Shown: positions 19,802 through 40,157, counted from the stretch's first letter. The stretch: DNA of 64,000 nt from a virus (IMGVR_UViG_3300009085_000003:15570-79569), one strand, 5' to 3'. Made by a program: numbers and translations. The notes: a model not told the origin generated them from the letters alone.

Positions 19802-21259
19802 CTAGTTATTCTCTGGGACAGGCGAATAGTAGCTCGGGATAGTGGTATCGCCTGCGGTCTTACCGCCATTGACGAAGTAGCCACTATCGGTGAACGGTGA
19901 ACGTTCGTGTGCCAGAGGTGCGTATCCGACATTATCAATCCGTGCCGCCAGATACGGGGTGAGCAGCATGAGCCGGGGCTCGGTCTTGGCAAGCACCTGA
20001 ACACAGAAATTGTTCGGTGGCTTCTTGTGCCACATAAAGCGACCGCTATCTGTGGTGTAGAAGCTGCCATCCGGGGCGAACAGGTTCGCCATTGCCATGG
20101 CACCGTTCGGTGAGTCGTAGCTAAAGTATTCCATGTAGGTCACTGGCATACGACCGAGAACGGTCATGGGCAGGATAAAGACCCCAGCCGAGAACACGCC
20201 CGGAGCCACTTCGGTTTCGGGGATTGCATCGTCCAAAACCACCGGGACTTTCTGACCGTCGATGAGCAGGTACTGACCTGTATATTCATACAGGTTGCCA
20301 CGCATTTCATCGCGCATCCGTTCCACGTCAGCTGAGTTAAGTGACAGTTCCGCTGAATTCAGGGTCTGGCAGCGATAGCTCAGGTAAGTGCACGGGTAGC
20401 TCTCTGTGATTGCATAGAACAGAGAGAACGGCATGACGATTTTCCATGACACCGGGTCAAGCCCAGCGCGGGAGGCAAGCCATTTCAGGTTGCGCATGGT
20501 GCTGGTAATCAGGCGGATAAAGCCCTCAGCATCGTCCTCGATTTGAACGTCGTTATAGTCGTAGACAATGGAGTCAGCTGCCGGGCAAGCGACGCCAGTT
20601 TCAGCATCCTGATACCCAGTATTGACCAGAGTCTCCAGACCCCAGAATTCACGATACCCGCCGCCCGCCGTGTTATTGGTGGGTGTACCGGTGTAGAGAA
20701 TCCGGGCGAAGTCACGCGACCACGTGACACCGAGCTCAAACAGAGCCTTGGCAATTTCATTCTGAGCAGCTTTCGCAGCGTCAAAACCGATGATGCCGGG
20801 GGTCTGGGGATTATCGCCAGCGCCAGCAAACGGATTGCCGTAGATGTCAAAATCGGTGAATTCTCCCCGATTAGTGACACGTCCCGCGCGGTCTACGTCG
20901 TAGACCTTGGTCATGCGGGAGAACCGACCAAACACAAAGCTGTGGGTGCACAGCTTCATGACACCAGTCACGGGCGGGTCATCACAGACACCGGTCGGCT
21001 CATCGCCTGACGATGCGGTGACACCAGTGATGATGCCATACAACGGGTTGGTCTCATTCGCTGCTTTGACCGGAAGCTGAGCTTGCAGACCCAGCTTGGG
21101 CAGAACCATTGCTGAGAACAACGGCTTTGATAATCCGGGGCTTGAGAACAAGCCACCCATACCGTGTCCCATCGTTGCAGACGGGGTACTGGATGGAACG
21201 TCTTTCAGGCTCACGGTGGAGAGCAGCGATTTCGCTAGTTTTTCGTAATCAATGTCCAT
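19802..21259 (-). CDS. Major capsid protein
   Basis: 485 aa directly after the protease/scaffold gene; strong RBS; terminator downstream. Confidence 0.8.
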   Translation of the reverse strand: MDIDYEKLAKSLLSTVSLKDVPSSTPSATMGHGMGGLFSSPGLSKPLFSAMVLPKLGLQAQLPVKAANETNPLYGIITGVTASSGDEPTGVCDDPPVTGVMKLCTHSFVFGRFSRMTKVYDVDRAGRVTNRGEFTDFDIYGNPFAGAGDNPQTPGIIGFDAAKAAQNEIAKALFELGVTWSRDFARILYTGTPTNNTAGGGYREFWGLETLVNTGYQDAETGVACPAADSIVYDYNDVQIEDDAEGFIRLITSTMRNLKWLASRAGLDPVSWKIVMPFSLFYAITESYPCTYLSYRCQTLNSAELSLNSADVERMRDEMRGNLYEYTGQYLLIDGQKVPVVLDDAIPETEVAPGVFSAGVFILPMTVLGRMPVTYMEYFSYDSPNGAMAMANLFAPDGSFYTTDSGRFMWHKKPPNNFCVQVLAKTEPRLMLLTPYLAARIDNVGYAPLAHERSPFTDSGYFVNGGKTAGDTTIPSYYSPVPENN

Positions 21260-23348: not shown

Positions 23349-23391
23349 CTGTCTTTGACTCCACAATATTGTCAGTTTATGACAATGTAAT

Positions 23392-23723: not shown

Positions 23724-24115
23724 TTTTCACCTATAACTTTACTAAACTCACGTGCTTGGATACCGGGCAGGTTAATGTTCTTGTTTACAATGACGCCGCT
23801 GAATTTACCCTTGCGTGAGCGTATCTGTCCGGGAACGGTCTTGGCGACGAACGGCGGCAGCATCAAGGCGTGTCTTACCCGCGTGCCACGGTCGATATAT
23901 TTGAAGATATCCTGCGTGGTGAAGATGTCACGCACGTTTGGTTTCGTCGCTTCGATGACGAACAGGGGCTGGTTAATCCACGTTTGTGTGACCACCTTGT
24001 AATCGATACGCACATCCTCGGCAGCCTCGTCCAGTGCCCGACCGATACCCTTGAGGTACAAGCCGGGGTCTAGAAACGAGTTCGGTGGAACGTGAATTCG
24101 TGCCCCAAATCTCAT
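23654..24115 (-). CDS. Basic virion morphogenesis protein (HK97 gp10-like, putative)
   Basis: FKYIDRGTR..PGIQAREF motif resembling the YVEYGT..PG.F pattern. Confidence 0.45.
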   Translation of the reverse strand: MRFGARIHVPPNSFLDPGLYLKGIGRALDEAAEDVRIDYKVVTQTWINQPLFVIEATKPNVRDIFTTQDIFKYIDRGTRVRHALMLPPFVAKTVPGQIRSRKGKFSGVIVNKNINLPGIQAREFSKVIGEKWTKRLPKMIQKSMATVAKQESR

Positions 24116-25764
24116 TCAGCCAATCTCCTTAATCCATTCACCATATTGCGGTAAATATCACTACCAAGATTATACGCCTTATGCTGGGCTTTCGTTGTGA
24201 CCACTTGCGTTTCCAGCAAGGTTCGTCCACCCATCTTGAGCAGCCATGACAGGCTCTTGGATGGGTCGATGTGATACGTCTTGGCAAACTTCGCAAACTG
24301 CGCCTGACCCAAGTCGAGGATTTTCTGTAACGTGGTCGCGCGAGCATCCTGCCGCATATAGACTCGCAGGAACCCACCCTCCGGGGCGTCCTGCCACTCG
24401 AACGAATCGACATTGCCACCCAGCATCCCAAGCGTAAATTTGGGGGTCTTGGGGTTCAGGTCTTGTTTCGTAGCTTGAATCAGCGCAGCCTGAATCTCGG
24501 GCGACAGGTCGGATGCCTTGATGTTTTTTATCATTAATGCCTTAGCTTGCTCAACGTCAATCTTACCGCTGCCTAGGTCAGCCAGAACATCGGTGTTGCC
24601 GGGCACAAGGCGGAACAGGGCGGGCAGCTTCTCCTTTTGGAACAGTGCCAGATTGTCAGCCACCGAAATGGCAGTGCCAATCGGGTTGCCCTCCCAGTTG
24701 ATGTCGGTCGATGCGTGGTTCGCTATCTCGATTGCAATCGCATCAGCCACACGGCTGCCAAACGCCTCCTCAATATCCGGGCGCACGTTCACGTTATAAT
24801 TCTCAGCTCCCCAGCGGGGATGTCCCATATCAAGGAATACAGCAGCGGGGTCAGTCAGATACCCAGCGTCGTGATAAATGTTCGCTATATAGGCTTGTGC
24901 GATATCAGTCGGGGTGTCCGAGCCCGGCACCTGTTTGAGTATTTCAGTGGCGAACTCGATATTGCCTCGGATATGATTGATGCCATGGTCACCCAGCTGG
25001 CGCTTCATTGCCTCGTTGTCTTGGACTGCCAATGCATCGGCAGCGTCCATGGCGATTTTGTGTCGCAGTTCTGGTGACGCGTTTGTGTTGACTAAAATAT
25101 CGTCCAGTTCATACAGCGTCTCGGCAATCACTTTAGCTGAGTCTTTATGGATGAACTTATCGGTCAGTTGTGTCATGCGCTCATCGACCGCAGCACGAAC
25201 ATCATTATCATTCAGCTTGGGTCGCTCCCCAAACTCAGCAAGGCGCTCTTTGATGATTTCTGGAATCCGTTTCCCGGCATCTGCCATACGGTCTTGGGCA
25301 TCAGCTCCAGCCTCAGTCCACTTAGCGCGTCGCTCATCCATGTCCATCTTCGCCCATTCAGCTTGGTCGAACGCGATAGCGGGCTTGTTCTGTACCATGA
25401 AATTTGGTTCGTCGAGTTTTTTGGCACCATGCTCACTGGCAAGTTTATCAAACTTCTCCAGCATCACCTTGCGCATCGACGCAGCCCGCTCTTGCTGCTC
25501 AGGTGTTTTGGGCTGGGCGGATGGCTGCGCAGCGGGAGTAGCCTCGGTAGCGGTGACTGGGCTGGACTCACCCTTGGGTTGGCTGCCGCCACGCTTGCCG
25601 GGAATACCAGCATGACCGCGGTTGCCGGAGCCAGCCCCGCCCTTTTCGCGCGTCCCAGACATGCTGCGCTTCACGGCAGCATCAATCTGCTCCGGGGTTG
25701 CCGTGTAAACGTTCAGCCCCTCGCGTTGCAGTTCATCTTCGAGTCCATCTAATTTGTATACCAT
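24112..25764 (-). CDS. Tagged HD-domain phosphohydrolase
   Basis: Tag at aa 41-61; DHGINH..HDAGY..HPRWG..NHAS..ADNL gives the H-HD-H-H-D metal ligands. Confidence 0.75.
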   Translation of the reverse strand: MVYKLDGLEDELQREGLNVYTATPEQIDAAVKRSMSGTREKGGAGSGNRGHAGIPGKRGGSQPKGESSPVTATEATPAAQPSAQPKTPEQQERAASMRKVMLEKFDKLASEHGAKKLDEPNFMVQNKPAIAFDQAEWAKMDMDERRAKWTEAGADAQDRMADAGKRIPEIIKERLAEFGERPKLNDNDVRAAVDERMTQLTDKFIHKDSAKVIAETLYELDDILVNTNASPELRHKIAMDAADALAVQDNEAMKRQLGDHGINHIRGNIEFATEILKQVPGSDTPTDIAQAYIANIYHDAGYLTDPAAVFLDMGHPRWGAENYNVNVRPDIEEAFGSRVADAIAIEIANHASTDINWEGNPIGTAISVADNLALFQKEKLPALFRLVPGNTDVLADLGSGKIDVEQAKALMIKNIKASDLSPEIQAALIQATKQDLNPKTPKFTLGMLGGNVDSFEWQDAPEGGFLRVYMRQDARATTLQKILDLGQAQFAKFAKTYHIDPSKSLSWLLKMGGRTLLETQVVTTKAQHKAYNLGSDIYRNMVNGLRRLAE

Positions 25765-25774
25765 GTGTCCACCT

Positions 25775-26956
25775 CTATGTCTCAGAACCTAATACATAAT
25801 TATCAAACATCAAATCATCCAGACTTATACCACAGTAGTTGTTCAGCAAATGATTGATTTTGTTGGTTTCAACGGGCGAGAACTGCCGGAGCAGATTTGT
25901 CCACCCGTTGGAGCCACTTTGCCACTTCAGTTTTTGGTCTGTGATATTACATGCCACCAGATGTATCAAGCCACGCACCTCGACAATAATTTCAGCGATT
26001 TTGTCAGGCGAATATCCCTTAGCTTGGAGCATGGTGCGAAACAAAGCCACTGTATCGTCGAGTACCACGCGGTAGGTACTATCCGCTCCGCTGCCTATCC
26101 GCCCCGCTATCTTTCCAAAAATTTTGGCTATCTCGCTGTACACCTCGCCGCCAGCGTCGTTACCGCTCTCGTTTGACACGTTCTTGGCTGCCTCGGGCAA
26201 CGTCAGTATCTGGACGGCATACGCAACTTCGTCATTAATACCGGATATCGTTGAGATGCACTGGATAGACCGGGCACCGCTAACCACCGCCATGGCAATA
26301 TCAGCAGATGACAAGGTGGACGCAGTTCCCAGCAGCTGGCGCTCCGCAAGCGCAGCGACGTGCGTGTATATTTGTTCGCCCTCCTCTTGACCATATTTGC
26401 GAATCAGGGTCTCTCGCGCTATATCAAAGTCGTACTCGTTATTCTTGGGATGACAGTGGAGTAGGGTCATGTCATCAAAACGCGCGATATCGTCGTCGGC
26501 GAACGCTATAGAGTGAGCACCGCCTCGCGCCTCGTGTATGATTTCCCCTTTCGGGTTCAGGACAAACGCATACTCCCTACCACCAGATATCTCACCCTGA
26601 CGCATCGCCTCCTTAAGGAGCTCGTTGGTGAGCGCCCGGAACTCCAATGAATTCGTTGGCAGCTTCTCCGATTTTAGTGGGTCGGGAGCCCCGCCTGTCT
26701 CTGGTTTAGGATTATCAATCGGAGCTGCGTGCTCGCCTTTGGGGAGAGACCCACCTCGCTTACCGGGTCTACCGGCGTGACCACGGTTACCAGAACTGGC
26801 GCTGCCTTTTTCGGAAATCGGGGAAAGTTCCCGCTCTGACGCGAGTAAATCATCTAACGCCTGCTGGGTAATATCGGCGTCGTCATAACCGGCTTCTAGA
26901 TATTTCAGCCAGTCGTCATTAAGCTCAGAGTTGTTAACAAAGTTCCTTGGTGTCAT
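25775..26956 (-). CDS. Tagged JAB/MPN-like metallo-isopeptidase
   Basis: Tag at aa 50-70; REYAF (E)..LHCHP (HxH)..LSSADI (SxxD). Confidence 0.65.
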   Translation of the reverse strand: MTPRNFVNNSELNDDWLKYLEAGYDDADITQQALDDLLASERELSPISEKGSASSGNRGHAGRPGKRGGSLPKGEHAAPIDNPKPETGGAPDPLKSEKLPTNSLEFRALTNELLKEAMRQGEISGGREYAFVLNPKGEIIHEARGGAHSIAFADDDIARFDDMTLLHCHPKNNEYDFDIARETLIRKYGQEEGEQIYTHVAALAERQLLGTASTLSSADIAMAVVSGARSIQCISTISGINDEVAYAVQILTLPEAAKNVSNESGNDAGGEVYSEIAKIFGKIAGRIGSGADSTYRVVLDDTVALFRTMLQAKGYSPDKIAEIIVEVRGLIHLVACNITDQKLKWQSGSNGWTNLLRQFSPVETNKINHLLNNYCGISLDDLMFDNYVLGSET

Positions 26957-29802
26957 GTGACTCCTACTATAAACGGATTATCATTCATTATAACAAACTC
27001 CAATTCGTTCAGACACCCAAAGCCAGTTAGGGCATTACAGAAAATTCGGCTGATGGGCACTCTGGCAGAGAACACGTAAGCTGAATTGCCGCTACTGTGA
27101 CCATCACCAAATGTATACGCAATACCAACCGAGGATGTCCATGCCTCCATCGCGTTGCCATGATATAGCGCCGTATCGTACTTGTCAATACCAGCCCTAC
27201 CCGCCTCAAAATTGATGTCTCCGATAGCTCTGGGTACCTCCAAATCGATAAAGCCTCGATAAAGCACAAGGGTGTCAGTCGGTTTGTATCCCATTTTGGC
27301 GAACCACGCCTGTGTTTGGCGATATATCGCTCGCAGCAACGCGCGTGCCTCGGCATTGGTCAATAGCATCATATGTTCGGAGCGGATGTCCATCTTCTCA
27401 TCCGATGTCGACAGCTCCCCCTTCGCCAAGGTGTCCGCAACGAATACCGTGAGACGAGCGAGGTTTCTCTGCTTCTCGTCAGGGAACACGTCCGCAAAAT
27501 TGCCCTCCAGCATATCATTGAGCGGAGACGGGTACAGGGCGGTGATATCGACACCGGTCTCGGCTGCGTATTGCTCTGCCAACACCGTAACTTTTTCATG
27601 TAAGGCACGGGCAATACTCCGAACGGAGTCCTCGGTTCCGATACTCCCCTTGTCACCATCCGGCACGTTGTATAGAAACCCGCGTATGATGCTACTTTCG
27701 GTTTCGTGGATGTAGGCGTAGTATTTTGATGTATCGGTAACTCCGGCTGCCGCCAGAGCTTCGTAAGCTACGGCTTGTAGTTCGTCATAATACTTGGTCA
27801 GAAAATCGCTCTTGGGTTGTACAGCGGCGTATTTCTGTTCTTGCCACTGCGACATATTAGCGCCAAACTCGTCCTTCATCGCCTTTTGCAGACCCAGCAT
27901 CATGGCATTATTATCATTCGAGCTGTGCGCCCAGCACTTAATAGCCGTACTCACTAGGGTCGGACTAATCCCAGTCTCTTGACTTAGGGTACTAATCACG
28001 TTCTTTTTAGCTTCCACACGCGCCACATTTAGTAGAGCCTCAACTTGCCCTTTATAGGTACCAGCTACAATCTGCCTAGAGAGCTCATCACGGTATTTGG
28101 TCGCCATGTCCACCATGTAGGCTGACTCGGGATGCTTGGTGTAATGTTGTAGAAATTCTGGCGTGAGGTATTTGTCCAACATGAGCATCTCACGCTCGAG
28201 GGCGATTCGGCTCCTGTCGTCCCGGTCGCCTTTCTGAGTTCTATCAAACGGGGTAATATCCGCAAAATACTCCCCACTGCTTTGGCTTCCGCCCACCGCT
28301 ACCGGTCGTGACGCCCCCTTTGGGGCGCTGCCGCCACGTTTGCCAAGGATGCCAACATGCCCATGGTGCCCAGAGCCAGTGCCACCTTTGAATGCAGCAA
28401 CCTTGCCTTGGAGAATCCCCATGATGAATGCAAACATATCCGGGTCTTGGCGTGCCAATCGCCATGGGCTGACCGCGAATATCTCAAAAGCGCAGGACAG
28501 CAACTCGGTGCTCCCGTTCTGGTAGGAGGTAGTCATATACTCGAACAAGGGCGGCTTGTTCCGAGCTTCCAGCCGGTCTCGGTATTCGTTCAGTAACGCC
28601 CGGTCGTCGTCGTATAGCAGATATTCAATAGCGTGACCATACTCATGCGCGACCGTTGCCTTGAGCTCATCGTCCATGGTATCCACATCGAGGTCAGTCT
28701 CTCGGTCGGTGTATGGATAATTTTCCCGTGTTGGTAAGAGCTCAGAGTACCCAGCCAGAGCCCGCAGCTCGGGAACCACCTCATAAGGAATGTTCATTTG
28801 CGTATTGGTATCATCGTAGTTAGCGCCACTATTAAACATACTGTACTTTAAGTTTACGCCAATCATGGGCTGGGTTTCGTCCACCACATCATAATTGACC
28901 AGCGAGTCGACTTCTGTAATCGCATCATATATTTTCTGGTCGATAGCATCTCGAATTTCCGGCGTCAGTTGCTTGAGCACCCTATCAGGATAATTATGCA
29001 TCACGTCCACGGTCTCATACTTGTTCAGATACTGGGTGGTGTCAACACCAAACATATCGACGAACTGGCGTTGCATCTTGTGTTGCAGGGCTTGAGACAC
29101 CTCTCGAGCCTTGGTATAGCGCTCCATGGCTGTCGATAGTTCATCGACCGCGTTCTGCATCACATCAGCTGCATGTTCGCCAAGGTACTTTTTTGCCTTG
29201 GCGTAAGAGTCTATAGCGACCACGCGTATCGGTTTCGATGGAATCTTGGCTGTGATATCAAATCCCGCATTACGCCACGCAGCGTTAGGCATATTATCAA
29301 GGTGTATATTTGGGTAGAACGCACCCTCAGCTCGAAACGCGATTGTCCAGTCCTCCGACACTTCATACTCGCCCAGCTCCAGCATATCCAGTACCTCGCC
29401 GTTACCAGCCCGCCACGCTGACATCACCGCGTCGAGCTGCTTGTGAGTCTCGGCATACGCTGCCGTGTACTGAGTCAGGTCTTTATCAATCGCTTTCATG
29501 TATGCGTCTAGATAGGTCTTGCCAATCGCCTTGGTCTGACGCAGTTTTGCCGTGAGTCCCTTTTGGTCGTAGTACCGATGCCGCACAGACGGGATATCGT
29601 ACGACGGGATATCACGCTTTCCCTGCCCCCGCTCCCCCTTGGGTAACGACCCGCCACGTATCCCCGGACGACCCGCATGTCCCCAGTTTCCGGAGCTGGC
29701 ACCACCTTTTACAGTGGCGCCAGTTCCCCATACAGCTGGGTCGATGATATCGATGTCAATCGATAACGGGATTCCGGGAACCGCGACGTTATTGTTTTTC
29801 AT
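26953..29802 (-). CDS. Two-module tagged protein: zincin metallopeptidase + R-S-E-type ADP-ribosyltransferase
   Basis: Two tags; HEYGH..ELLSCAFE; LYRGF..WTSS..ELEF. Confidence 0.75.
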   Translation of the reverse strand: MKNNNVAVPGIPLSIDIDIIDPAVWGTGATVKGGASSGNWGHAGRPGIRGGSLPKGERGQGKRDIPSYDIPSVRHRYYDQKGLTAKLRQTKAIGKTYLDAYMKAIDKDLTQYTAAYAETHKQLDAVMSAWRAGNGEVLDMLELGEYEVSEDWTIAFRAEGAFYPNIHLDNMPNAAWRNAGFDITAKIPSKPIRVVAIDSYAKAKKYLGEHAADVMQNAVDELSTAMERYTKAREVSQALQHKMQRQFVDMFGVDTTQYLNKYETVDVMHNYPDRVLKQLTPEIRDAIDQKIYDAITEVDSLVNYDVVDETQPMIGVNLKYSMFNSGANYDDTNTQMNIPYEVVPELRALAGYSELLPTRENYPYTDRETDLDVDTMDDELKATVAHEYGHAIEYLLYDDDRALLNEYRDRLEARNKPPLFEYMTTSYQNGSTELLSCAFEIFAVSPWRLARQDPDMFAFIMGILQGKVAAFKGGTGSGHHGHVGILGKRGGSAPKGASRPVAVGGSQSSGEYFADITPFDRTQKGDRDDRSRIALEREMLMLDKYLTPEFLQHYTKHPESAYMVDMATKYRDELSRQIVAGTYKGQVEALLNVARVEAKKNVISTLSQETGISPTLVSTAIKCWAHSSNDNNAMMLGLQKAMKDEFGANMSQWQEQKYAAVQPKSDFLTKYYDELQAVAYEALAAAGVTDTSKYYAYIHETESSIIRGFLYNVPDGDKGSIGTEDSVRSIARALHEKVTVLAEQYAAETGVDITALYPSPLNDMLEGNFADVFPDEKQRNLARLTVFVADTLAKGELSTSDEKMDIRSEHMMLLTNAEARALLRAIYRQTQAWFAKMGYKPTDTLVLYRGFIDLEVPRAIGDINFEAGRAGIDKYDTALYHGNAMEAWTSSVGIAYTFGDGHSSGNSAYVFSARVPISRIFCNALTGFGCLNELEFVIMNDNPFIVGVT

Positions 29803-30352
29803 ATGCAGCCAGATAATCTACAACCTCAAGTTGTTTGTGGGCAGTCATCATTTTGTCCACTACCAGTTTAACATCTTTCCAGACATCTTTACCGTAATCA
29901 TGGAACAGAATAATTCCACCCTTTTTGACCAGTGGAACCCAGTCTGTGATATCGCGGGTGATTTCGTGCTCCAGATGACCATCGTCAACCAGCAGCAGGT
30001 CGATGGGTTTATTATCCGCCCAGTGCTTGACCCGTGCCTCGTGCGCGTCCGCAAGAATCTGGACGGGATACGCCGGGAACCCATGCTCCAAAAATGCGTT
30101 CTGTTCATTCACCAAGCCGTGCCCTGTAGCCATTAAGGTATTATCAATCGTGTACAGGGTCGGCAGCAGGTCTGGGCGTACATCAGCCACCGCCATGGCA
30201 GTGGTTCCCACGCCCGCGCCAATATTGACCACCGTGGCATTCTCCGGGGCAAGCTGGGCATACTTCGCCAGTAGACCCACCTCGTTAACCGTCAGGTAGC
30301 CGAACGACCGAGCCAGATGCTCCGCACGTGTTGCTTTCAGTAACTCGCTCAT
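29789..30352 (-). CDS. Class I SAM-dependent methyltransferase (Methyltransf_24-like)
   Basis: VNIGAGVG..IDLLLVDDGH..GGIILFHDY. Confidence 0.85.
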   Translation of the reverse strand: MSELLKATRAEHLARSFGYLTVNEVGLLAKYAQLAPENATVVNIGAGVGTTAMAVADVRPDLLPTLYTIDNTLMATGHGLVNEQNAFLEHGFPAYPVQILADAHEARVKHWADNKPIDLLLVDDGHLEHEITRDITDWVPLVKKGGIILFHDYGKDVWKDVKLVVDKMMTAHKQLEVVDYLAAYEKQ

Positions 30353-33300
30353 AATCCTAGTAACCTCCTAATAGCAACCTCTAGGTCGCTACTGTTTAAA
30401 TTATAGTCGAAATCAAATATATCGTTAGCAGCAATGATTTCGACATTCTCACCACCAAAGATACGGAACTCACCCATGGAGCTCATCTGGTAACCCTTGG
30501 CTTTGCCCAGCTTCCCCATTTTTGGTTTCAGAACAAGTGTCTTAAACTGTTTCGGGTCAAGTTTGGCGAGCGCTTTCCAGTTGGTGCCAAAGAATACCGG
30601 GTTGCTCATGCCGCCCGCACCTTCACGCGCATATAGGTAGGCGTGTGACCACAGATACCACAGAGCCTCGCGGTACGCCTCCTCGGTCATCAGGGTTCCA
30701 TCCCACTTTTTGACCTCCTCGCCACGTTCATAAGCCATAAGTCTGTCCAGACTCTTTTCGCTATCGAACTCCCGGAATCGGTCGCTCCAATCTTCCCGGA
30801 TACCCTCACTGCCGTTCTGGGCACCCTCAAACATCTGGGTAGCAGTCAACATACCATTTGCGACTAACCACGCCTCCTGTAGAGACTGCTCGACTTCTTT
30901 GGCAGTCTTAAGGTCATTGGTCAGGGAGATGGTCTTATCATCACCGCCCGCAAGACCGACTTCGCTATCGTGCCCATGCATCTCGTAGCGGGAGCGGAGC
31001 TGGTCACCGATGACAGCTGCGGCATCGGTCGTGACGTGATATAGCTCATCCGGCAATTCCATCCATTTGCCTTGGTTACTGACATAAAACGCTGTCAGCG
31101 CCTCAACATCGGACGGGGTCAAGCGAGCAGCGGTGACCGCATGATTGACATCGAACTCGAACTTTTCACGCAGCTCCCCAGCCACTCCGCCATATTCTAT
31201 GATATCGTAGTACCCTTTGTATTCTTTGCTATCCTCGCCATACTTGGCTTTAAGTTGCTCCTCGTACCCCTGCAAAATATAGTCTGTCTCCGAGCGACTA
31301 AACTCGGTCATGTCAGGAGCGCCTGCCAGTAACTCTCGGGCTAATTTTCTACCGTAACGACCACGCTCCGCACTGGCATCGCTTCCATCTTGTATCAAGA
31401 GCGACTTGTCAGTCATCCGTGTAGATAAATCCTCTGCGTTTTCAGGCAGCCCAAGCTGTTCGCGCACGCGACGTATGCGATTATCAAACTCGGCTTGATG
31501 GTGCTCCAATACTTTGGTTACCTGAGCTGTAGTAACATAATTGCAGTTCGTAAACACTTCCATCCCGAGGTCTACAGTTGCTGGGTCATCACTGTCCCGC
31601 AAAGCACGCCAGTGGTCATATGTCAGACCAAGCGTGCTAAGCGCAATATCAAAATCGTCAGCACCCAGTCCAACAGTGCCATTATTATCCGTGGCTTCCA
31701 GTTTGTTTTTGAGGAGCAGGTATGGTCTGGATATTGTCATCTGCGGAGTCTCCAGTATCTCCGCACTCACATCCGGGTCTCCATACCCACGCCTGACGCT
31801 ACGAGAACTGAAATAGAATTTGTCGGCTAGGTCAATCATGACATCTGGGTTAGGAATGATGCCATTGTTAGCGATGATGGCTTTCGCCTCTTGCACCAGA
31901 GCTTGCCGCTGGGCACGAGCTTGTTCGACCTCAGCATCCTCGATACCGTATGACACCACCGGTCGCGCGGCTCCCTTGGGCGCTGAACCGCCCCGGCGTC
32001 CCAAGACGCCCACGTGTCCACGGTGACCAGAACCAGCCCCGCCTTTCAGCTTCGCCTCTTTGTTCACGCCAACGTAGTCCCACTCTTGGAGCGGGTGGGT
32101 ACGCCAGCCACCATCGTCGCTGATGTATATAGCAATGTCCGACGGATTCAACTGTCGTTCAAATAAGGCGCTTAGAATGTCAGGAAAGTGTTTATCCAGC
32201 TTTTTCAATAACCGGTCGATATCATCATCACCGTATCGATGCAGAGATACAATTGGCTTCCCTTTCACATACCCAAACAGCCCACGGAAACTTATGTTAT
32301 CCTGATTTAATTTGTCATTACCACCATAACGACCTGTCTCTCGCATGAGGATATCGTCATGTATCTCGTCTTTTTTCCCGGCGAACGCAAGCCCATCCTC
32401 GGTAACCAAGAATGGTCGAACGTCAGCCATGCCCTCTGTTTTATTGGTTCGTATCATGGCGTAGCCGGGTATCTCGTCCTCAGCCCGGAGTCGAGAGGCA
32501 ACATCGATATCAGTAATGCCCATCGTCACGAGCCCACCGCGTCCTGAGCCACCCACCTTACCGGGACGTCCACGATGACCAAAATTACCAGAGCCCTCTC
32601 CGCCCTTGAGTACCACATTTCCGTGAATAATCCCCAAAATGAATGAGAACAGGTACGGGTCTTGCCGCGCCAGTTTCCATGGGGCGGTAGCGAAAATCTC
32701 AAAAGCACAGGACAGGATTTCGGTCTCCCCGCTCGAGTATTCCCTGTTCATGTAGTCAAAGAACATATGAGACGTGTTCTTGTTCGTTCGGTAGTCCCTC
32801 AGGGCTTGGCGGGTCTTGGCTGGCAACCGTGCCTCTACGTGATGACCCAACTCATGCCACAACTCCGCTCGGGCAGCCTCTTGCATGGCGTCCACATCCA
32901 GTTCGGTATGGCGCTGTACATACGGATAATTGTTCGGGTCGTTAGCAAGGAACTCCCCGCTATCCCATGTGTACAAAGTCGCCTCGCCGCTTATCTGCTG
33001 TAAATCCGCAGTGTACGCGCCCCGATTCGGGTAGGTAACAAAGAGCACTTCGTTATCGACAGCTTTCGGGTCGTAGACACTTTTATCAATCATCTGGTTG
33101 GCACGCCACAGCTCCTGCCGGATAAACTCCTCGGCATCAGGGGCGTACCGTATATCGCCAATATTCCAACCGATAGGACGCGGCGCCAAAGCGATAGACG
33201 TCCTGAATTTCTCCGCCTTGTCTCCGGCACTCAGCACACTGGTATAACAGTCCATGACCATCTGGCGCTGCATGTCGTTGACCTCACCCTTGCGCTTGAT

Positions 33301-36300
33301 AACCTCTTGAACAAATTCATTGTGTCGATTTAGATACGTCTCAAAGTGCTCCGCCGCCTGCGGATACTCTTTCTGAATGTCGCGCAAGCTCATCTCTCGC
33401 TCGAGCGTATTGTTGAACGGGGACGGCGAGATTCGTCGCTCAGTAATTGTAAAAACTCTATCATCGATGCCTATCGGTCGAATGCGACTTGTCCCATAAA
33501 GATGGGACTCGATTCCAGCAACCGCGGTACTGGTCTGTTCGTTGAACATCGCCTCGCGCGTATCCGGGGATGACAGGGTAGACCTATCGTTTTCCATCCA
33601 CACCATCTGGTTACGAACCCAGACGAGATAGTCATCGCGCAACTTCTCATACTGTTCTACCTGCGGTTTGACCCGGTTCATGTACTCGAGCACGGCAGAG
33701 GCGCCCGCCCGCATCAACGACTTAACGTCATGTTCGTATACAACTGGATGACCGCTCACATCTTTTTCCGGTGGGAATTTCAGGAACGGATTATCAAGAT
33801 TAATAGCGGGGGTGGAACGCTCACCTTTAGGTAACGAACCTCCACGCTTGCCCGGTCTGCCAGCGTGACCGATATTGCCGGAGCCCGTACCACCCTTAGT
33901 AGTAACATTCGGGTCATAGCCAAATGTAAACGAGTCAAGCTCCGTGAGCCAATCAAAGTGCCGAAAGTATGGCTTGTTGGCAACGATGACCACGCGCAAT
34001 GGCTTGCCCGTTAAATCACAATACTTTTTCAGGGCGCCCATGAATCGAGACCCTAGGTTGTTAAGGTTGTCTGGTTTTTTAAAGATGGTTCCCAAATATA
34101 GGTATGAGCCATCGTCCTGTATTCCAACCGACAACTGGGTATTATCATTATCGGTGAAGTACAGCGACTCGACCGGATTGCCGTAGATGTCGTTCCACCG
34201 CTCGTCACCATTACCATAGCGCATCGTAACATCCCCGCCCATTTCGCGCTCAAAGAATATCTTCACCGGGTTGTCTGGCGTGTTTAATAGTTGCCGACCA
34301 GTGATACTGCGACTCCACAGCTCGCGCCGGGGCATATCTGTGCCGTCAGCAACTTCACGTAGCTTATTAACAGCATCGTTATAACCCGCTTCGGAGCCGC
34401 CCTCCCCAGACCCACCCACCTGTCCGGGGCGTCCCCGGTGACCAAAGTTACCAGAACCCTGTCCGCCTTTCAGCACCGTAGTTCCCTGAATGATGCTGAG
34501 GATAAAGCCGAACATCTCTGGGTCTTGTTGGGCAAGACGCCATGGGGCAGTAGAGAATATCTCGAACGCGCAGGACAGGAGCTCGGTGGCACCAGTGCGG
34601 TACCGTGTTTGCATGTAGTCGAACATGAAAGGATTCTTACCATCGGCTACATCCACGCGAAAGAGATAGAAATTATCAATAGCATGACGGTATGGTACGG
34701 TTAGAGTGTGTTCCACATGATGACCAAACTCGTGCCAGATTTCCAGCCGCAGGTATTCTTGCAGTGTGTCGACATCCACATCGTAGTCTCGCGGTATGAA
34801 TGGATAAATGCCACCTATGCCAGCACCGGGGAATTCTGGGGGTTCAGCCGCATAGGCGCTCTCGCGCTGGTCGTATGTCACCAGCTTGCGGTCTAAGGTG
34901 ATGGTCGGTATATCCAACTCCCGGTTGTCCGCAGGGTTGGCATACGAACCGGTCATAAGGGAGGTGTCAATATAGAGCTTGTCACCATACAAGCTGCGGT
35001 TGCCCTCATGCAGAATGTTGACATTCACTACGCCTGCCGCATCGTCTACGACGCTACGAATATAATCAATGGCGTCCGGTGAAATAGATAGGGGCTTACC
35101 GGTGATGTCTACTCCTCCCGTATTCATGTCCAGCGCGACCTCCCATGGTCTTGGGTTGGACGCCTTAAGAGATTTAATGAACTGGTTCGCTAACTCGGTC
35201 TGGACTTTGTTGGCTGCCTCGCGCTTTTCAATATAGCCGTTCGCAAAGGCATTGTAATCGTTGAACCACTTATCCAGTCCGCCAGCAGTGAGGGCTTCTG
35301 GATATTTTTCCTTGAGGTCGTTGTAGCTGAAAACCTGCTGGTATTTGTGACCGGATTCGTGGGTATTTGGGTCATCAGCCGACGGTACCCATGGCTGGAT
35401 AAGCAGGAACGGCTCATCCGGGCTCAGGGGACGCACCTCCATGCGCGAGTCGTAGGTATTATCAAAGCGCTGCTGCCCGATACGAATCGACGGGTTCCGC
35501 ACATCGACATGGGCAAGACCGTAATCATCAGGGGATAGGTGCCGAAACGTGTCATGGAGCACATTGCTAGAATCGGCTGACGGCAGACTTTGCAGGAACT
35601 CATGTGTTATCGCCTTAAAGTCAGCCTGTGCCTCAGTGACGAACGTCTCCCGCAGCTTTTTGTACTCATCCAGCTGGGGCTCGATGGATTTCAGGTATAC
35701 AGCTGCCGCATCCTTGTTCGCGTCGATGAGTGCCTGAACATGGCTTGGGTATTGCGGTGCCGGGAATGTTTTGTCGCCCACGCGCAGGACACCACGCGGC
35801 TGCTTCTTGGGCTTGTCTACTGGAACCCCACGAACGCCCTTGGGCAAGCTGCCACCGCGTTTTCCGGGTCGTCCTGCATGACCAACGTTCCCAGAGCCTG
35901 TGCCGCCCTTGGTGGTAGTCTCTTTCAGGGAGATGTTCCCATCGGAATCGATAAACACGTGCTTGGCAGACAAAAACTCGCTCAGGTCATATTCGAGCGA
36001 TACACTGGAGTACCCATGACCGAGATGCTCAGAGTACGTCTGCCAGCGCACAGTGTCGTTGTCCGCCAGCTCCATATCCCAGACGCCAGCATCGTACATG
36101 CGTTGCAGCTGGCGGAGGATTTTGGAGTTGACGTTCTGGGTGGTGATATATAAAGACTTGCCACGGAAATTACCAACCAACAGGCGGAAGTTCACGAACG
36201 GTATCGCGCTGTTCTCGTCCATGACCAACATGCCATACGTCTCCTGCATGGCGTGGCGGAACATGCCCACGGTCTCAGAGAGCTTCACCGGCATCGTTGT

Positions 36301-38472
36301 CATGGGCTGATTCTCGAGCTGGTGTTTCAGGTAGATAGCGTTGTACTTATTAACTATCCGTTCGAGTTCTTTTTCAATCTCGTGGTCATCATCAAACACA
36401 CCCTCATCGACCTCGCGGGTCAGCTTGTGCATCTCTTTGTCCAAGTCGACATATTCCTGTAGCCACGCAATCGCTGGGTCATCGTTAGACTCCAGTATTT
36501 TCTTGGCGCTCCTAGCAACACCGATGATGGGGCGCAACGCATCGAACACAAAGACGGCTTTTTCACCAACCCGTCCGGGGTCAGCTTCCATCTCCTTGAC
36601 GATATCGGGGAATAATCCCGGATTTTCGTACACAATTCCACCCACCAGCTGCTCGTGACTAAAATGCCCTTCGCCACGAACGCCAATCACGCCAATCCCC
36701 TCGATATAGGTGGCGGCTGCCGTGGTGAAGTCATCAACATCGTCTCCCTCGAGCTCAGCCTTAATCGCTTCGTTCACGCTGTCGAATGGACGGTAGCCAC
36801 TCGGGAGCTTGACAGTGTTCCAGTCTATTGTCGGGGGACTATCGATGCCGTAGGTAATTGACTCGCCCGCAGGGGCACGGGGGACAGGAGCAGCGCCTTT
36901 CGGGGCAGAACCACCGCGCTTTCCCGGCACACCTACGTGACCATGGTGCCCACTGCCAGCACCGCCCTTGGTGGTTACCTCGGGCATCAGATAATACAGC
37001 TTGTAAAAATACTTATAGCCATCCGGTGATGGGGATTCCTTAAATTCATCGAGAACCCACTGAGCGTCATGATTGAGACGCAACGTAAACATGCCATCTA
37101 TCCACGAAGGCGGGATAGCCTGCTCCATGCGATAGCACCCTTGAGTCTCAAAGTCAACGTCAGCTTGCGCGTCTGTAAAGATGTCAGATAATTTTTCAAT
37201 CGGAACCCGGATACGCACCCACACAGGCTGGGTTTTCGCAGCAAACTCCTCCGGTGGAAACAAGTCAGTTGGTACGTTGTGTTGTACATAGCTGGCTAGG
37301 TCGGTCATCGTTTCTATGTCATCGACAAAATAGGTCGATGGCGGTCTGCCATAATGGACACGACCGGGCAGAATGCCGTACTGCTTGAGACTGTCCGCCA
37401 AACCAGCTGGAGTCCCATGGTAGAGGTCAACGTATCCGATACCCTTTGCGATAAGCTCCTGCTCCAGAGCGTCCAGTTTCGCAGCGATATCTGGGTCGTA
37501 GTTCGTAAAGTCTCCCTGCGCATGATACGGTGTCGCATACGGGTCTTTACTCGGGTCTGTTTTCATCGGTTCTAGGTCACGCTCCCAGCCATGGAGACCG
37601 GTGTAAGCCGGGTCTGTGCGACGCGGGTTGTGCATGTCAATGACTTCCGACGCCGGAGCGACCCTGCCACCGAACCGACTCCCGCCACGCTTTCCGGGAA
37701 TACCAGCATGACCCGCCTCGCGCGTGAATCCACTGCCCTTCCCGCCTTTGAGTGAAATCGGGGAAACTTCCCTCCCCGCTATGCGATGCAACGGCAGGTG
37801 AACTTGCTTCGTCCGGTACGGTAAGATGAGTTCCCAGTTCCGTATCTGGAGCGGGTTCCATGCACGATGACGCTCGACGCAGGTCTGGCAGTGCTCAGCG
37901 ACCCCGAGCTCCCAGTATGCATCAGCGTTACCGTCCTCGATATCACCGATGACCTCGATACGCCACCGGCATTTGCAGTTTTTCAAACATTGGCTGGTAC
38001 CATCCCCCGGATAGGCTGGCAGGGGCATGTCATCCACGCCCAGCTTGGCAGAGGTGTTGGCACGCCAGTATTGCTCTACCGCAGTGCGGTTGTACTGACG
38101 AGCACGCCCGAACCAGCGGCTGTCGAAATTGGTATCATCGAATTTGTTCCCGAGTTGGTTGGCTGCGATTACCAATGCAAAGCCAGACAAGAACGCCAGC
38201 TGCTGGGCAATCGCTTGTGTCAGGTAGTCGCTTGCTTTTGGGGGAATGACCTCAGAGCCAGCGCCGACCATGTAGCCGGTGGTGGCTCCCAAACCGATGA
38301 GCTCACCCATCAGCTGCTCCCAAGCCTCGACGGTTATCTCACCGTTAAATAGCTCGTAGAGCAGGGCGTCGGTCTGTTCATCCATGCCCATAATAACGGG
38401 AATCAGCTCGGGGGGCAGACCGTCGTAGCGTTCCCACAGCTCGGGCTCACCAAGCGGGGTGTAGTCTGGCAT
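30349..38472 (-). CDS. MuF-like minor head polyprotein with 7 tagged cargo modules
   Basis: Directly after portal; N-terminal PGDG..CLKNCKC..HCQTC head-morphogenesis motif; 7 tag copies; ART, HExxH and GNAT-like motifs. Confidence 0.8.
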   Translation of the reverse strand: MPDYTPLGEPELWERYDGLPPELIPVIMGMDEQTDALLYELFNGEITVEAWEQLMGELIGLGATTGYMVGAGSEVIPPKASDYLTQAIAQQLAFLSGFALVIAANQLGNKFDDTNFDSRWFGRARQYNRTAVEQYWRANTSAKLGVDDMPLPAYPGDGTSQCLKNCKCRWRIEVIGDIEDGNADAYWELGVAEHCQTCVERHRAWNPLQIRNWELILPYRTKQVHLPLHRIAGREVSPISLKGGKGSGFTREAGHAGIPGKRGGSRFGGRVAPASEVIDMHNPRRTDPAYTGLHGWERDLEPMKTDPSKDPYATPYHAQGDFTNYDPDIAAKLDALEQELIAKGIGYVDLYHGTPAGLADSLKQYGILPGRVHYGRPPSTYFVDDIETMTDLASYVQHNVPTDLFPPEEFAAKTQPVWVRIRVPIEKLSDIFTDAQADVDFETQGCYRMEQAIPPSWIDGMFTLRLNHDAQWVLDEFKESPSPDGYKYFYKLYYLMPEVTTKGGAGSGHHGHVGVPGKRGGSAPKGAAPVPRAPAGESITYGIDSPPTIDWNTVKLPSGYRPFDSVNEAIKAELEGDDVDDFTTAAATYIEGIGVIGVRGEGHFSHEQLVGGIVYENPGLFPDIVKEMEADPGRVGEKAVFVFDALRPIIGVARSAKKILESNDDPAIAWLQEYVDLDKEMHKLTREVDEGVFDDDHEIEKELERIVNKYNAIYLKHQLENQPMTTMPVKLSETVGMFRHAMQETYGMLVMDENSAIPFVNFRLLVGNFRGKSLYITTQNVNSKILRQLQRMYDAGVWDMELADNDTVRWQTYSEHLGHGYSSVSLEYDLSEFLSAKHVFIDSDGNISLKETTTKGGTGSGNVGHAGRPGKRGGSLPKGVRGVPVDKPKKQPRGVLRVGDKTFPAPQYPSHVQALIDANKDAAAVYLKSIEPQLDEYKKLRETFVTEAQADFKAITHEFLQSLPSADSSNVLHDTFRHLSPDDYGLAHVDVRNPSIRIGQQRFDNTYDSRMEVRPLSPDEPFLLIQPWVPSADDPNTHESGHKYQQVFSYNDLKEKYPEALTAGGLDKWFNDYNAFANGYIEKREAANKVQTELANQFIKSLKASNPRPWEVALDMNTGGVDITGKPLSISPDAIDYIRSVVDDAAGVVNVNILHEGNRSLYGDKLYIDTSLMTGSYANPADNRELDIPTITLDRKLVTYDQRESAYAAEPPEFPGAGIGGIYPFIPRDYDVDVDTLQEYLRLEIWHEFGHHVEHTLTVPYRHAIDNFYLFRVDVADGKNPFMFDYMQTRYRTGATELLSCAFEIFSTAPWRLAQQDPEMFGFILSIIQGTTVLKGGQGSGNFGHRGRPGQVGGSGEGGSEAGYNDAVNKLREVADGTDMPRRELWSRSITGRQLLNTPDNPVKIFFEREMGGDVTMRYGNGDERWNDIYGNPVESLYFTDNDNTQLSVGIQDDGSYLYLGTIFKKPDNLNNLGSRFMGALKKYCDLTGKPLRVVIVANKPYFRHFDWLTELDSFTFGYDPNVTTKGGTGSGNIGHAGRPGKRGGSLPKGERSTPAINLDNPFLKFPPEKDVSGHPVVYEHDVKSLMRAGASAVLEYMNRVKPQVEQYEKLRDDYLVWVRNQMVWMENDRSTLSSPDTREAMFNEQTSTAVAGIESHLYGTSRIRPIGIDDRVFTITERRISPSPFNNTLEREMSLRDIQKEYPQAAEHFETYLNRHNEFVQEVIKRKGEVNDMQRQMVMDCYTSVLSAGDKAEKFRTSIALAPRPIGWNIGDIRYAPDAEEFIRQELWRANQMIDKSVYDPKAVDNEVLFVTYPNRGAYTADLQQISGEATLYTWDSGEFLANDPNNYPYVQRHTELDVDAMQEAARAELWHELGHHVEARLPAKTRQALRDYRTNKNTSHMFFDYMNREYSSGETEILSCAFEIFATAPWKLARQDPYLFSFILGIIHGNVVLKGGEGSGNFGHRGRPGKVGGSGRGGLVTMGITDIDVASRLRAEDEIPGYAMIRTNKTEGMADVRPFLVTEDGLAFAGKKDEIHDDILMRETGRYGGNDKLNQDNISFRGLFGYVKGKPIVSLHRYGDDDIDRLLKKLDKHFPDILSALFERQLNPSDIAIYISDDGGWRTHPLQEWDYVGVNKEAKLKGGAGSGHRGHVGVLGRRGGSAPKGAARPVVSYGIEDAEVEQARAQRQALVQEAKAIIANNGIIPNPDVMIDLADKFYFSSRSVRRGYGDPDVSAEILETPQMTISRPYLLLKNKLEATDNNGTVGLGADDFDIALSTLGLTYDHWRALRDSDDPATVDLGMEVFTNCNYVTTAQVTKVLEHHQAEFDNRIRRVREQLGLPENAEDLSTRMTDKSLLIQDGSDASAERGRYGRKLARELLAGAPDMTEFSRSETDYILQGYEEQLKAKYGEDSKEYKGYYDIIEYGGVAGELREKFEFDVNHAVTAARLTPSDVEALTAFYVSNQGKWMELPDELYHVTTDAAAVIGDQLRSRYEMHGHDSEVGLAGGDDKTISLTNDLKTAKEVEQSLQEAWLVANGMLTATQMFEGAQNGSEGIREDWSDRFREFDSEKSLDRLMAYERGEEVKKWDGTLMTEEAYREALWYLWSHAYLYAREGAGGMSNPVFFGTNWKALAKLDPKQFKTLVLKPKMGKLGKAKGYQMSSMGEFRIFGGENVEIIAANDIFDFDYNLNSSDLEVAIRRLLGL

Positions 38473-40157
38473 TAGCGCCCCCTGCGTGCGAATTTGGTTA
38501 CTGAGCTGTACAGCTTCCGTGCGGCTCCCATAGATTTAGCCAGAATGCTCTCAGCCCGTTTTTGTTCCTTGGGGGTCACAACCGGGATAGGCTTGTCACG
38601 CTTGGCTCCTAGACTGTTCACCTTGGGCTTGGGGGCTGGCTTGGTACGCACCGCCTTGGTTGCTTTAGGCTTAGCAGTTGCCACCAGCTTACCCAGCATC
38701 TGTTGCCGGAGCATCTTATTGAAATCAGCCGGGTTGGGCTTAACAGCTGGCGCAGCAGTGTTGGTCGCTACGGTAGGCGTTCCCGGCGTGACCTCTGGAC
38801 TGGCATTATCATCCGGGCTCATGCTGACCTCACCGGGTGCTCCAACCGGAGCGCCTGTCTGGACGCCGGGAGCCTTTGAATCAGCGAAATCCTTGGGCAA
38901 CTCGTCTTTTTCAATCATCATCGTGCGTTCCTCGTCGGGTGTGGTCAGACCAGCTGACAGACGCACCTGCGCTGACTGCGCACGCTTGGTGGAGATATCC
39001 TCAGATTGCTGGATGTCACGATAGTCTTTTTCAACAAATGCAAACTCGGTATCCATGGGCATGACGTACTCATTCATGGCGTGTGTGAAAGCCTCGCGCC
39101 ATGCGACCAAACCCTTGCCACGCGCCTTGTCCGCCAGAACCTGTGACTGGGCGCCGGTACCGATAGTGCCGGAGCTGAGCGGCTGGAGCTCTTGGGGGTC
39201 AAGACCGAGCACGTCTGCATAGGTCAGGAGGGCAATGTCAAACTCCTCTTTGCGCTGGAATCGGTCAGGCAGTTCGGCAAGTGGGATTTTTACCAGATTT
39301 GGCTGCATCTCATCCGGGACACCAAGCACCACAGCGCCCATGTAGGACATGACGCCCTTGGCAGTCTCACCGGATTTGGTAGCCAGAACAGCCTCGCGCA
39401 ACTGGGTGTCCAACACGCCGTTCACGATGTAGATAGCAAGCGGGTGCATACCGGAAATCTTCTCCCGGAGGTACCACTCAATCGCTGACAATTTGTAGAT
39501 AGCTGGGAAAGCACGGCTGGCGGCACACAGTCCGACGCCGTTATAAATCTCGGACGGGTCTGGCATCTCCGAGAACATCATCACTTGGTGGTCACGCATC
39601 TCATGGTACGCGCCCCGCCTGTCCTGAAAGACAACCGGGACGTCCGGGTCGCCGGTACGAATGCAGCGCAACGAGTCCAAGTGCCGGAGACCGATAATCT
39701 TGCTGCCCTCAGCTGGCGAAGCTCGGACGATTTCGATGAAACTTCCGTTATCCGTGGTCAAATAATCGCGCAACTGTTTTGACAGGAACCCGACCCACCC
39801 GACCCGGCGTCCATCCGCACCACGCAGCAGCTCTTGGGTATCCTGTACACGCTGCGGCACTGAGCCCTTGATTTCCCATGACAGCGACACGATGCGCGTG
39901 ATGGCAATACCGATGGCGGCTGACCACATGGCTTCTTTGAATAGAGAGCTGCGCAAGATAGCATCGCGCCCCCGCGTCCAATACGCCGGGGGCTGTGGGG
40001 TCATGGCGCTCGAGTCCTCGCTACGATGCCACGGAACTACAATTTGTAGGACGCCACCATTCAGAACCTGCGCGACGTCATCTTTGGTGACAGACTTTTG
40101 TAAGAGCTTCTTGATGTCAGTTGCTCCGCTATCCGCCTTTTTGTTTTTTTGAACCAT
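38472..40157 (-). CDS. Portal protein
   Basis: 561 aa; RDYLTTDNGSFIEIVR..GLRHLDSLR, DVLGLDPQEL, LTTPDEER motifs typical of HK97-like portals. Confidence 0.85.
   Translation of the reverse strand: MVQKNKKADSGATDIKKLLQKSVTKDDVAQVLNGGVLQIVVPWHRSEDSSAMTPQPPAYWTRGRDAILRSSLFKEAMWSAAIGIAITRIVSLSWEIKGSVPQRVQDTQELLRGADGRRVGWVGFLSKQLRDYLTTDNGSFIEIVRASPAEGSKIIGLRHLDSLRCIRTGDPDVPVVFQDRRGAYHEMRDHQVMMFSEMPDPSEIYNGVGLCAASRAFPAIYKLSAIEWYLREKISGMHPLAIYIVNGVLDTQLREAVLATKSGETAKGVMSYMGAVVLGVPDEMQPNLVKIPLAELPDRFQRKEEFDIALLTYADVLGLDPQELQPLSSGTIGTGAQSQVLADKARGKGLVAWREAFTHAMNEYVMPMDTEFAFVEKDYRDIQQSEDISTKRAQSAQVRLSAGLTTPDEERTMMIEKDELPKDFADSKAPGVQTGAPVGAPGEVSMSPDDNASPEVTPGTPTVATNTAAPAVKPNPADFNKMLRQQMLGKLVATAKPKATKAVRTKPAPKPKVNSLGAKRDKPIPVVTPKEQKRAESILAKSMGAARKLYSSVTKFARRGR

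Follow-up and report, generated by a model that had tools for sequence, protein, structure and literature searches.

The virus record IMGVR_UViG_3300009085_000003 of IMG/VR is a complete phage genome of 79,569 bp with direct terminal repeats. Our analysis concerns a window of 64,000 nt (bases 15570-79569 of this record; coordinates below are those of the window), where one gene on the minus strand encodes a protein of 2707 amino acids (aa) composed of an N-terminal domain, M0, and seven cassettes, M1-M7, each headed by a glycine-rich, 21-residue peptide, the tag, with the consensus KGGxGSGxxGHxGxPGxxGGS. The original prediction, made from the sequence of the window, had described this open reading frame (ORF) as a polyprotein with tag-defined modules. 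A regular expression detected exactly seven tags in the polyprotein, at aa 242, 502, 855, 1335, 1526, 1956 and 2143; their starts in the window (37749, 36969, 35910, 34470, 33897, 32607 and 32046) coincide with the predicted module borders to the base. The gene and its parts are listed below; tags were located by the regular expression.

30349-38472, minus strand: polyprotein gene, 2707 aa, a single open frame with an ATG start
37750-38472, minus strand: M0, probable N-terminal head-protein domain (AF2 model and family alignment)
37678-37749, minus strand: tag 1, KGGKGSGFTREAGHAGIPGKRGGS, with a 3-residue insert
37054-37443, minus strand: M1 core, predicted ADP-ribosyltransferase-fold domain (profile matches)
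36907-36969, minus strand: tag 2
35911-36906, minus strand: M2, no homologue found
35848-35910, minus strand: tag 3
34471-35847, minus strand: M3, an N-terminal part and a predicted C-terminal HExxH zincin core at 34471-34872 (alignment)
34408-34470, minus strand: tag 4
33898-34407, minus strand: M4, small module with two homologues only (in L022 and P0239)
33835-33897, minus strand: tag 5
32608-33834, minus strand: M5, predicted paralogue of M3 with a zincin core at 32608-33117 (alignment)
32545-32607, minus strand: tag 6
32047-32544, minus strand: M6, no homologue found
31984-32046, minus strand: tag 7
30352-31983, minus strand: M7, an N-terminal half and a predicted C-terminal ADP-ribosyltransferase-fold core at 30451-31062 (AF2 model)

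Five more tags are present in the genome, all on the minus strand, at 29682 and 28362 (both in an ORF of 949 aa), 26782 (393 aa), 25617 (550 aa) and 12607 (235 aa); beyond these 12 copies the genome has none. In an alignment of 11 tags (the M1 tag with its 3-residue insert was omitted) 11 residues over ∼21 positions are invariant. The tags of the genome share 68% aa identity, with the same codon used at 34% of identical residues, and the longest exact run of nucleotides between tags is 12. For the tags of the M3/M5 pair, 93% identical to each other, the same-codon share is only 16%. Synonymous sites are scrambled while the peptide is kept; therefore, the tag is a selected peptide and not a product of chance or of a recent DNA repeat. 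By the same codon comparison, gene conversion at the tags is unlikely. In the structure model the Gly-rich tags fall in low-confidence, probably disordered stretches. The tag was also considered as an AT-hook; this idea was set aside, as RGRP is found in two of the 12 copies of this phage and, across loci, GRP is most often preceded by A (48%).

The tag is not confined to this gene, a point absent from the original prediction. It is a phage-wide and metagenome-wide signal with a phage-specific preceding residue, and the meaning of ‘cassettes’ changes accordingly. A tag-alignment scan with strict patterns confirmed 215 tag-bearing stretches in IMG/VR. Statistics were derived from 74 IMG/VR loci containing 176 distinct tagged ORFs, all on one strand, with one to seven tags per ORF; proteins with up to nine tags exist. 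The first tag starts at a median position of aa 38, the median tag spacing is 241 aa and the median number of residues after the last tag is 245; the basic unit is, therefore, a tag plus one domain, either free or fused. The same modules recur in other phages in many orders, fused or split and joined at tags. The view that tags delimit cassettes thus extends to these 176 ORFs, in which the modules stand behind tags either fused or alone. In single-tag proteins short variable leaders precede the tag.

None of 50,697 GenBank phage records contained the tag; a 37-aa tag query at E ≤ 10 produced spurious matches alone there, and literal tag strings had no match in the searchable literature. Among bacterial genomes, tags were located in 17 loci of several phyla, in prophage-like regions; lineages include Gastranaerophilales, Muribaculaceae, Oscillospiraceae, Oxalobacter and Azospirillum. 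None of the genome contigs scanned carried this phage's own tag subtype. One locus belongs to a cultured strain, Oxalobacter paraformigenes HOxBLS (L087, NZ_KI392031.1:869664-885726), where a 1961-aa protein carrying two tags is encoded in a prophage-like region, preceded, with a single gene in between, by ORFs resembling the terminase and portal families. In L077-L081, L083-L085 and L089, which come from several Gastranaerophilales and Vampirovibrio metagenome-assembled genomes, the tag was detected by tblastn and no tagged ORF appeared under translation table 11; these phages or prophages may use recoded stop codons. The sequencing runs containing at least half of the sampled words of this phage are labelled freshwater sediment metagenomes, and no RNA dataset with phage sequence was among the runs listed.

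The residue just before the tag depends on the phage. At position −1 identity is 0.87 within a phage versus 0.21 between phages, and at position −3 the respective values are 0.35 and 0.11. All 12 copies of this phage have K before the tag; the types seen in different phages are ...E, ...D, ...N, R-x-L, V-x-R and ...K. Five protease families (S77, S78, S78_2, S49 and ClpP) were searched in 22 other tag-bearing records. The T4-type prohead protease S77 was found in one of them (L019), which is the sole record having [LIF]-x-E before all seven tags; the cleavage site of the T4 prohead protease gp21 is L/I-x-E. S78_2 proteases were present in two records, both with ...K before the tag, and S78, S49 and ClpP were found in none of the 22. 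The pre-tag residue together with this protease match is the best available evidence for a phage-specific cut, which would be made just before the universal tag.

In the 74 loci the large terminase gene is followed by the portal gene, the tagged genes and then the capsid gene. The tag is common to phages with at least three portal families and with different capsid-gene families. In two portal families (PF04860 and PF06381, Pfam-verified on representatives) some members carry a tag with a C-terminal add-on; such ORFs occur in L005, L006, L008, L048, L051 and L053. The canonical MuF domain (PF04233) is found alone, fused to a portal (L033/L037) or behind a tag. Tagged portals, MuF fusions and synteny thus tie the tagged modules to capsid-interior proteins.

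At least four cassettes are of kinds typical for injected phage effectors, namely two with a predicted ADP-ribosyltransferase (ART) fold and two predicted HExxH zincins, in agreement with what the original prediction assigned to M1, M7, M3 and M5. The M1 core has the motifs LYHGT (37411-37425) and STYF (37327-37338) and recurs 13 times behind tags in other proteins. When its profile was compared with the PDB, 41 of the 42 matches were ART-fold proteins, the best at E 0.0035; Tpt1, PARP10/12/14/15, exotoxin A, cholix toxin, diphtheria toxin and DarT were matched. Among 10 homologues HGT is invariant and the position of the third-motif glutamate varies (E, Q, K, A). The profile matches identify the M1 core as a predicted ART fold.

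The M7 core carries YHxTT (31027-31044), SxT (30919-30930) and ExR (30454-30474); H40, S77 and E229 do not vary among 43-49 family members, and T79 varies hardly at all. Its family comprises 1043 representative proteins of 234-6325 aa, and about a quarter of the top 149 M7-core proteins have tags. Companion domains in these proteins include ADPrib_exo_Tox, ART-PolyVal, GNAT, 2H, MuF, ATLF, ParB_N and helicases, a company usual for polyvalent proteins. Structures were predicted with AF2 for M0 and M7. The M7 model has a predicted local distance difference test score (pLDDT) of 89, and nearly all of its top 50 VIA matches in the full PDB are ART folds, with moderate Z values: Tpt1 (9ld3; Z 8.0, root-mean-square deviation 2.7 over 88 aa), diphtheria toxin (Z 6.5) and Scabin (Z 6.1). 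Foldseek gave no significant PDB match for this model, and the M7-core profile matched nothing among PDB sequences. Judged by the model, the M7 core is a predicted enzyme with an ART fold and catalytic-type motifs.

M3 and M5 align over 470 aa with 28% identity. HEFGH lies at 34720-34734 in M3, where the conserved E follows within TELLS (34555-34587), and HELGH at 32842-32856 in M5. HExGH is present in seven of nine aligned zincin rows (the row of L007 starts after the motif and that of L027 is without it), and an invariant E is located 45-70 residues downstream of it. The 949-aa neighbour gene contains a third copy of the HExxH...E core. The C-terminal 45 aa of the zincin match phrog_33618, a family of unknown function; comparison of the zincin profile with the PDB gave a weak match, to lethal factor (E 0.21). 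These motifs mark M3 and M5 as predicted paralogous HExxH...E zincins. As the zincin core ends proteins elsewhere, the tag after a zincin simply marks the next cassette. One more HExxH string, HESGH (aa 1038; 35347-35361, minus strand), occurs in the N-terminal part of M3; not conserved in M5, it is probably fortuitous.

The GNAT-like nature proposed for M4 found no support in any test: the module had neither a Pfam match nor a PDB profile match, and no Pfam match is on record for either of its homologues. Aligned by eye, NLGSR of M4 corresponds to the GxGxA-like GGMGTA of a homologue. For M2 and M6, neither a jackhmmer search of 4860 ORFs of tag loci nor profile searches produced a homologue. 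The whole 2707-aa protein is a singleton among 5.8 billion clusters, and a PDB sequence search with it returned nothing. Searches of Pfam, PHROGs and NCBIfam with the whole protein and all eight modules gave no useful match save phrog_33618 at the zincin C-termini; no Pfam family, ART-PolyVal and MuF included, passed the threshold. Megablast and tblastn comparisons with the 50,697 GenBank phages gave no match. The long relatives P0002-P0004 share with the polyprotein the tags and a domain or two; Pfam domains on record are ART-PolyVal, ADPrib_exo_Tox and 2H phosphoesterase for P0004 and kinase-like for P0003, which has several repeated modules with one tag ahead of each. A second short motif, HLPGQHDQQTH, is located near domain borders of P0003 (residues 7, 610 and 806), in one case immediately ahead of a Gly-rich tag; possibly a further type of header, it is absent from the window.

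The AF2 model of M0 (pLDDT 86.8) consists of a four-helix bundle and a small beta (zinc) knuckle. Mean pLDDT falls to ∼50 from about residue 220, shortly before the tag at 242, so that here, where a fold was modelled, the domain border agrees with the tag position. The Cys motifs are CLKNCKC (37969-37989) and EHCQTC (37879-37896). At least 85 clusters make up the M0 family, most of whose members are free-standing proteins of 210-240 aa; for none of the clusters is a Pfam domain on record in the M0 region. The knuckle of this family is formed by PxDGSTxCxxNCxC and WxLxxAEHCxxC in either order; here the order is swapped relative to MuF, whereas other members have the MuF-like one.

The claim that the N-terminus is MuF-like holds for position and is doubtful for sequence. 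In L003 and L032 a gene of the M0 family follows a portal-like gene, as here, and in L008 it is found close downstream of a portal-family gene; canonical MuF is missing from phages with the M0 family in the records checked (one of them 96% complete). At a cutoff of E ≤ 10, PF04233 matched neither the protein nor the module nor the six-frame translation of the genome; among 82 family members a single one, with the MuF-like knuckle order, reached E 0.031. An hhalign comparison of alignment A5 with canonical MuF (A4) produced 43 columns at the knuckle only (E 7.9e-4, probability 25%), and with alignment A3 the probability was 4%. An N-terminus unrelated to MuF, which the original prediction had named as evidence against itself, is neither established nor excluded. 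Against BFVD, ∼15 of the top 50 matches of the M0 model were head-morphogenesis or minor capsid proteins, all weak (E 0.15-0.9, TM 0.2-0.4), and against the PDB (Foldseek and VIA wide) generic helical bundles alone were found. We conclude that the M0 family appears to take the place of MuF after the portal and is MuF-like by position and probable role; by sequence, M0 is a distant or unproven relative of MuF and no demonstrated member of PF04233. Searched alone, M0 has no close relative in IMG/VR; the nearest relative of the head module of this phage is in L003 (IMG/VR 3300033141_001736). In L002:1-3756 (IMG/VR 3300025087_001783) an intein (Pfam Intein_splicing, aa 993-1188) splits an M0-like head domain, being inserted within the first Cys motif (DGSTEC / HNCLMYCKC).

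The genes around the polyprotein gene, with one tagged gene away from the cluster, are as follows.

38472-40157, minus strand: portal-like gene, 561 aa (synteny of its 13-member family)
29789-30352, minus strand: S-adenosylmethionine-dependent methyltransferase gene, 187 aa, untagged (Methyltransf_24, E 1.3e-13)
24112-29802, minus strand: three further tagged genes for candidate cargo of 949, 393 and 550 aa (tag search)
11987-12694, minus strand: tagged gene, 235 aa, away from the cluster (tag search)

Stop and start codons overlap at both ends of the polyprotein gene, as TAATG at the junction with the upstream 561-aa gene and as ATGA at that with the downstream methyltransferase gene, which the original prediction had named correctly; the polyprotein gene is translationally coupled to both neighbours. 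Purine-rich runs (AGGGGG, GGAGG) 5′ of the polyprotein and methyltransferase starts are possible ribosome-binding sites. The 561-aa gene has no Pfam or PHROG match and is a putative portal gene by the position of its family in other phages, directly after the large terminase and before tagged genes. The 949-aa gene contains two tags and the third zincin copy (HEYGH at 28633-28647), and the 393-aa and 550-aa genes have one tag each. The domain of the 235-aa protein recurs in tagged proteins of eight other loci. Between the cargo block and a 485-aa capsid candidate (19802-21259, minus strand; no Pfam or PHROG match) lies an untagged 687-aa gene (21303-23366, minus strand), residues 296-491 of which are homologous to modules within tagged proteins of L040 and L003. 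The families of the capsid candidate and of the portal-like gene are present in 6-13 tag-bearing phages, at the expected positions. The complete genome yielded no tyrosine integrase, and downstream of the polyprotein gene there is no small ORF of the immunity type.

Several known systems resemble this one in part. Internal proteins and Alt of phage T4 reportedly carry an N-terminal capsid-targeting sequence that is cut by the gp21 prohead protease; this signal has ∼10 residues and is removed by cleavage. As in T4, a short signal is found here on unrelated, putatively head-borne proteins, with a protease-specific cut site suggested and predicted ADP-ribosyltransferases among the candidate cargo. 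Unlike the T4 signal, the conserved tag would remain on the cargo, being located behind the presumed cut; it is also repeated within polyproteins and common to phages with unrelated portals and proteases. Cargo-loading peptides of encapsulins offer an analogy only: a short Gly-rich address directs unrelated enzymes into an HK97-fold shell. These peptides are usually C-terminal, and their consensus differs from this tag.

MuF/SPP1 gp7 proteins (PF04233) are similar in their location directly downstream of the portal, in a helical N-terminus followed by a small Cys/His knuckle and in C-terminal effector fusions; in the records checked, a related phage has one of the two, canonical MuF or the M0-like family, and never both. 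In contrast to MuF, there is here no PF04233 match, the knuckle motifs are swapped and the similarity is limited to 43 columns. Adjacency to the portal gene, one of the features that define the MuF superfamily in Jamet et al. 2017 (PMC5576092), is seen in the TAATG overlap, the portal being named by synteny. The MuF polymorphic toxins of that paper have one C-terminal toxin domain, followed by a small immunity ORF, in a temperate phage; the polyprotein differs in having seven cassettes and in lacking both an immunity-like ORF and signs of lysogeny.

Iyer et al. 2017 (PMC5512222) describe polyvalent proteins as single polypeptides of phages or conjugative elements with 2 to 15 effector or enzyme domains, and propose a processing role for the metallopeptidases among these domains. 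As in the polyprotein, ART and zincin-like domains of polyvalent proteins are combined with a head-protein (MuF-type) domain, the whole being predicted to be packaged and injected. The polyprotein has two predicted ART-fold domains, two predicted zincins and three unassigned modules in one ORF; the hallmark Pfam domains ART-PolyVal and MuF are not found in it and are seen in other regions of its homologues only. A text search of the paper (PMC5512222) detected no mention of a linker, glycine motif or cleavage tag between domains. What sets the polyprotein apart from the polyvalent proteins of that paper is the conserved 21-residue tag at the head of each cassette, with its phage-specific preceding residue. 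The protein is probably a member of the polyvalent-protein class, and its header tag is undescribed and widely shared.

On a slim balance of probability, we consider this gene to encode a capsid-cargo polyvalent protein; cleavage ahead of every tag would release tagged effectors, which would then be injected into the host. The M0 domain would dock the string to the portal or the procapsid interior, in the manner of SPP1 gp7. While the head matures, a protease would cut at ...K/GG ahead of each tag; the string and the four other tagged products would give 12 free modules, each starting with the GG-tag. The tag would stay on the module as a retention or ejection label read by a conserved partner, and the modules would leave the capsid with the DNA to modify host targets early in infection, for takeover or counter-defence. 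Candidates for the cutting enzyme in this phage are the three embedded zincins, because no standard prohead protease is detectable. For the same reason the cutting enzyme is hypothetical; since the portal and capsid genes of this phage escape all profiles, a divergent protease may have been missed.

A number of observations weigh against such a course of events. The cultured phages of GenBank are without the tag. In 19 of the 22 records, all seven complete ones included, none of the five protease families was detected, so that the agreement between pre-tag residue and protease comes from three records. S78, S78_2, ClpP and S49 are also absent from this complete genome, in which S77 was not searched. 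Zincins were considered and rejected as a universal tag protease: present in only ∼8 of the 74 loci, they cannot be the general one. Candidate capsid proteins are never tagged; the site is therefore not shared with a classical prohead-protease substrate. Finally, the portal identity of the 561-aa gene is taken from synteny and not from a profile, and the relation of M0 to MuF is weak by sequence and by fold.

A full-length chain of 2707 aa that enters both the capsid and the host uncut is unlikely, in our estimate; the tags would then serve as flexible spacers or as repeated docking peptides for the capsid interior or a scaffold, in analogy to encapsulin cargo-loading peptides, and not as cut sites. 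There is a precedent in the N4 virion RNA polymerase, which is packaged and injected as a single uncut chain; such a course would agree with the lack of a detectable protease in this genome, with the Gly-rich composition of the tags and their low-confidence stretches, and with the existence, in the same domain family, of untagged polyvalent proteins as long as 6325 aa. However, 11 invariant residues with saturated synonymous sites would not persist in a simple spacer, and a docking peptide would be needed once per chain rather than ahead of each module. The phage-specific residue before a universal tag and the S77 match in L019 resemble a cut site instead, and the short variable leaders of single-tag proteins also disagree with the uncut chain. 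Injection of the intact string followed by cutting in the host cytoplasm, we judge decidedly unlikely. The zincins M3 and M5 of the string, or else a conserved protease of the host that reads the universal tag, would do the cutting, and active enzymes would be set free in the target cell only. Cutting after injection was proposed for metallopeptidase domains of polyvalent proteins (Iyer et al. 2017, PMC5512222), and conservation of the tag across different portal and capsid families and in prophage-like regions of several phyla fits a universal partner. Yet zincins are missing from most tag loci, the host partner would have to be conserved in all tag-bearing bacterial lineages, and the pre-tag residue tracks the phage, not the tag.

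A MuF polymorphic toxin for competition between bacteria, with immunity supplied elsewhere, is very improbable. The gene stands directly after the portal, a position that enters the definition of the MuF superfamily (PMC5576092), and its ART-fold and metallopeptidase domains are of toxin kinds, but there are seven cassettes and not one C-terminal toxin, PF04233 has no match, and the downstream gene encodes the 187-aa methyltransferase and not a small immunity protein. MuF toxins are tied to temperate phages, whereas this genome has direct terminal repeats and no tyrosine integrase. With neither the integrase nor an immunity-like ORF found, takeover of the host or counter-defence is a better fit than competition between bacteria, in line with the preference already voiced in the original prediction. 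Barely credible, in turn, are tags that act as DNA-level recombination sites for shuffling of cassettes, their peptide being without function: the many orders of the modules, fused or split and always joined at tags, would agree with this, but tags have no more than 12 identical nucleotides in a row and a near-random choice of codons (34%; 16% for M3/M5), contrary to what is expected of a recombination substrate.

Returning to the cut capsid-cargo protein, a bolder and rather doubtful extension, which we put forward tentatively, is that GG-x-GSG-xx-GH-x-GRPG-xx-GGS may be a lineage-independent ‘cargo header’, which the protease of the respective phage would lay bare as a new N-terminus and which one conserved partner would recognise. 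Candidates for this partner would be packaged DNA, a conserved capsid-interior surface or the ejection machine. If this reading is true, any protein placed behind the tag would be loaded into the capsid and injected from it, and the gene described here would be a natural 7-in-1 delivery string. Many uncultured phages would then mark capsid and host-bound cargo with one portable peptide; injected effectors could be read from sequence alone, the handling of giant polyvalent proteins would be explained and a simple handle would be available for loading foreign proteins into phage heads. The gene itself presents a head protein in the MuF position whose zinc knuckle is permuted, and it offers a catalogue of seven candidate early-acting host-modifying enzymes, among them two predicted ART-fold domains from Pfam-less families.

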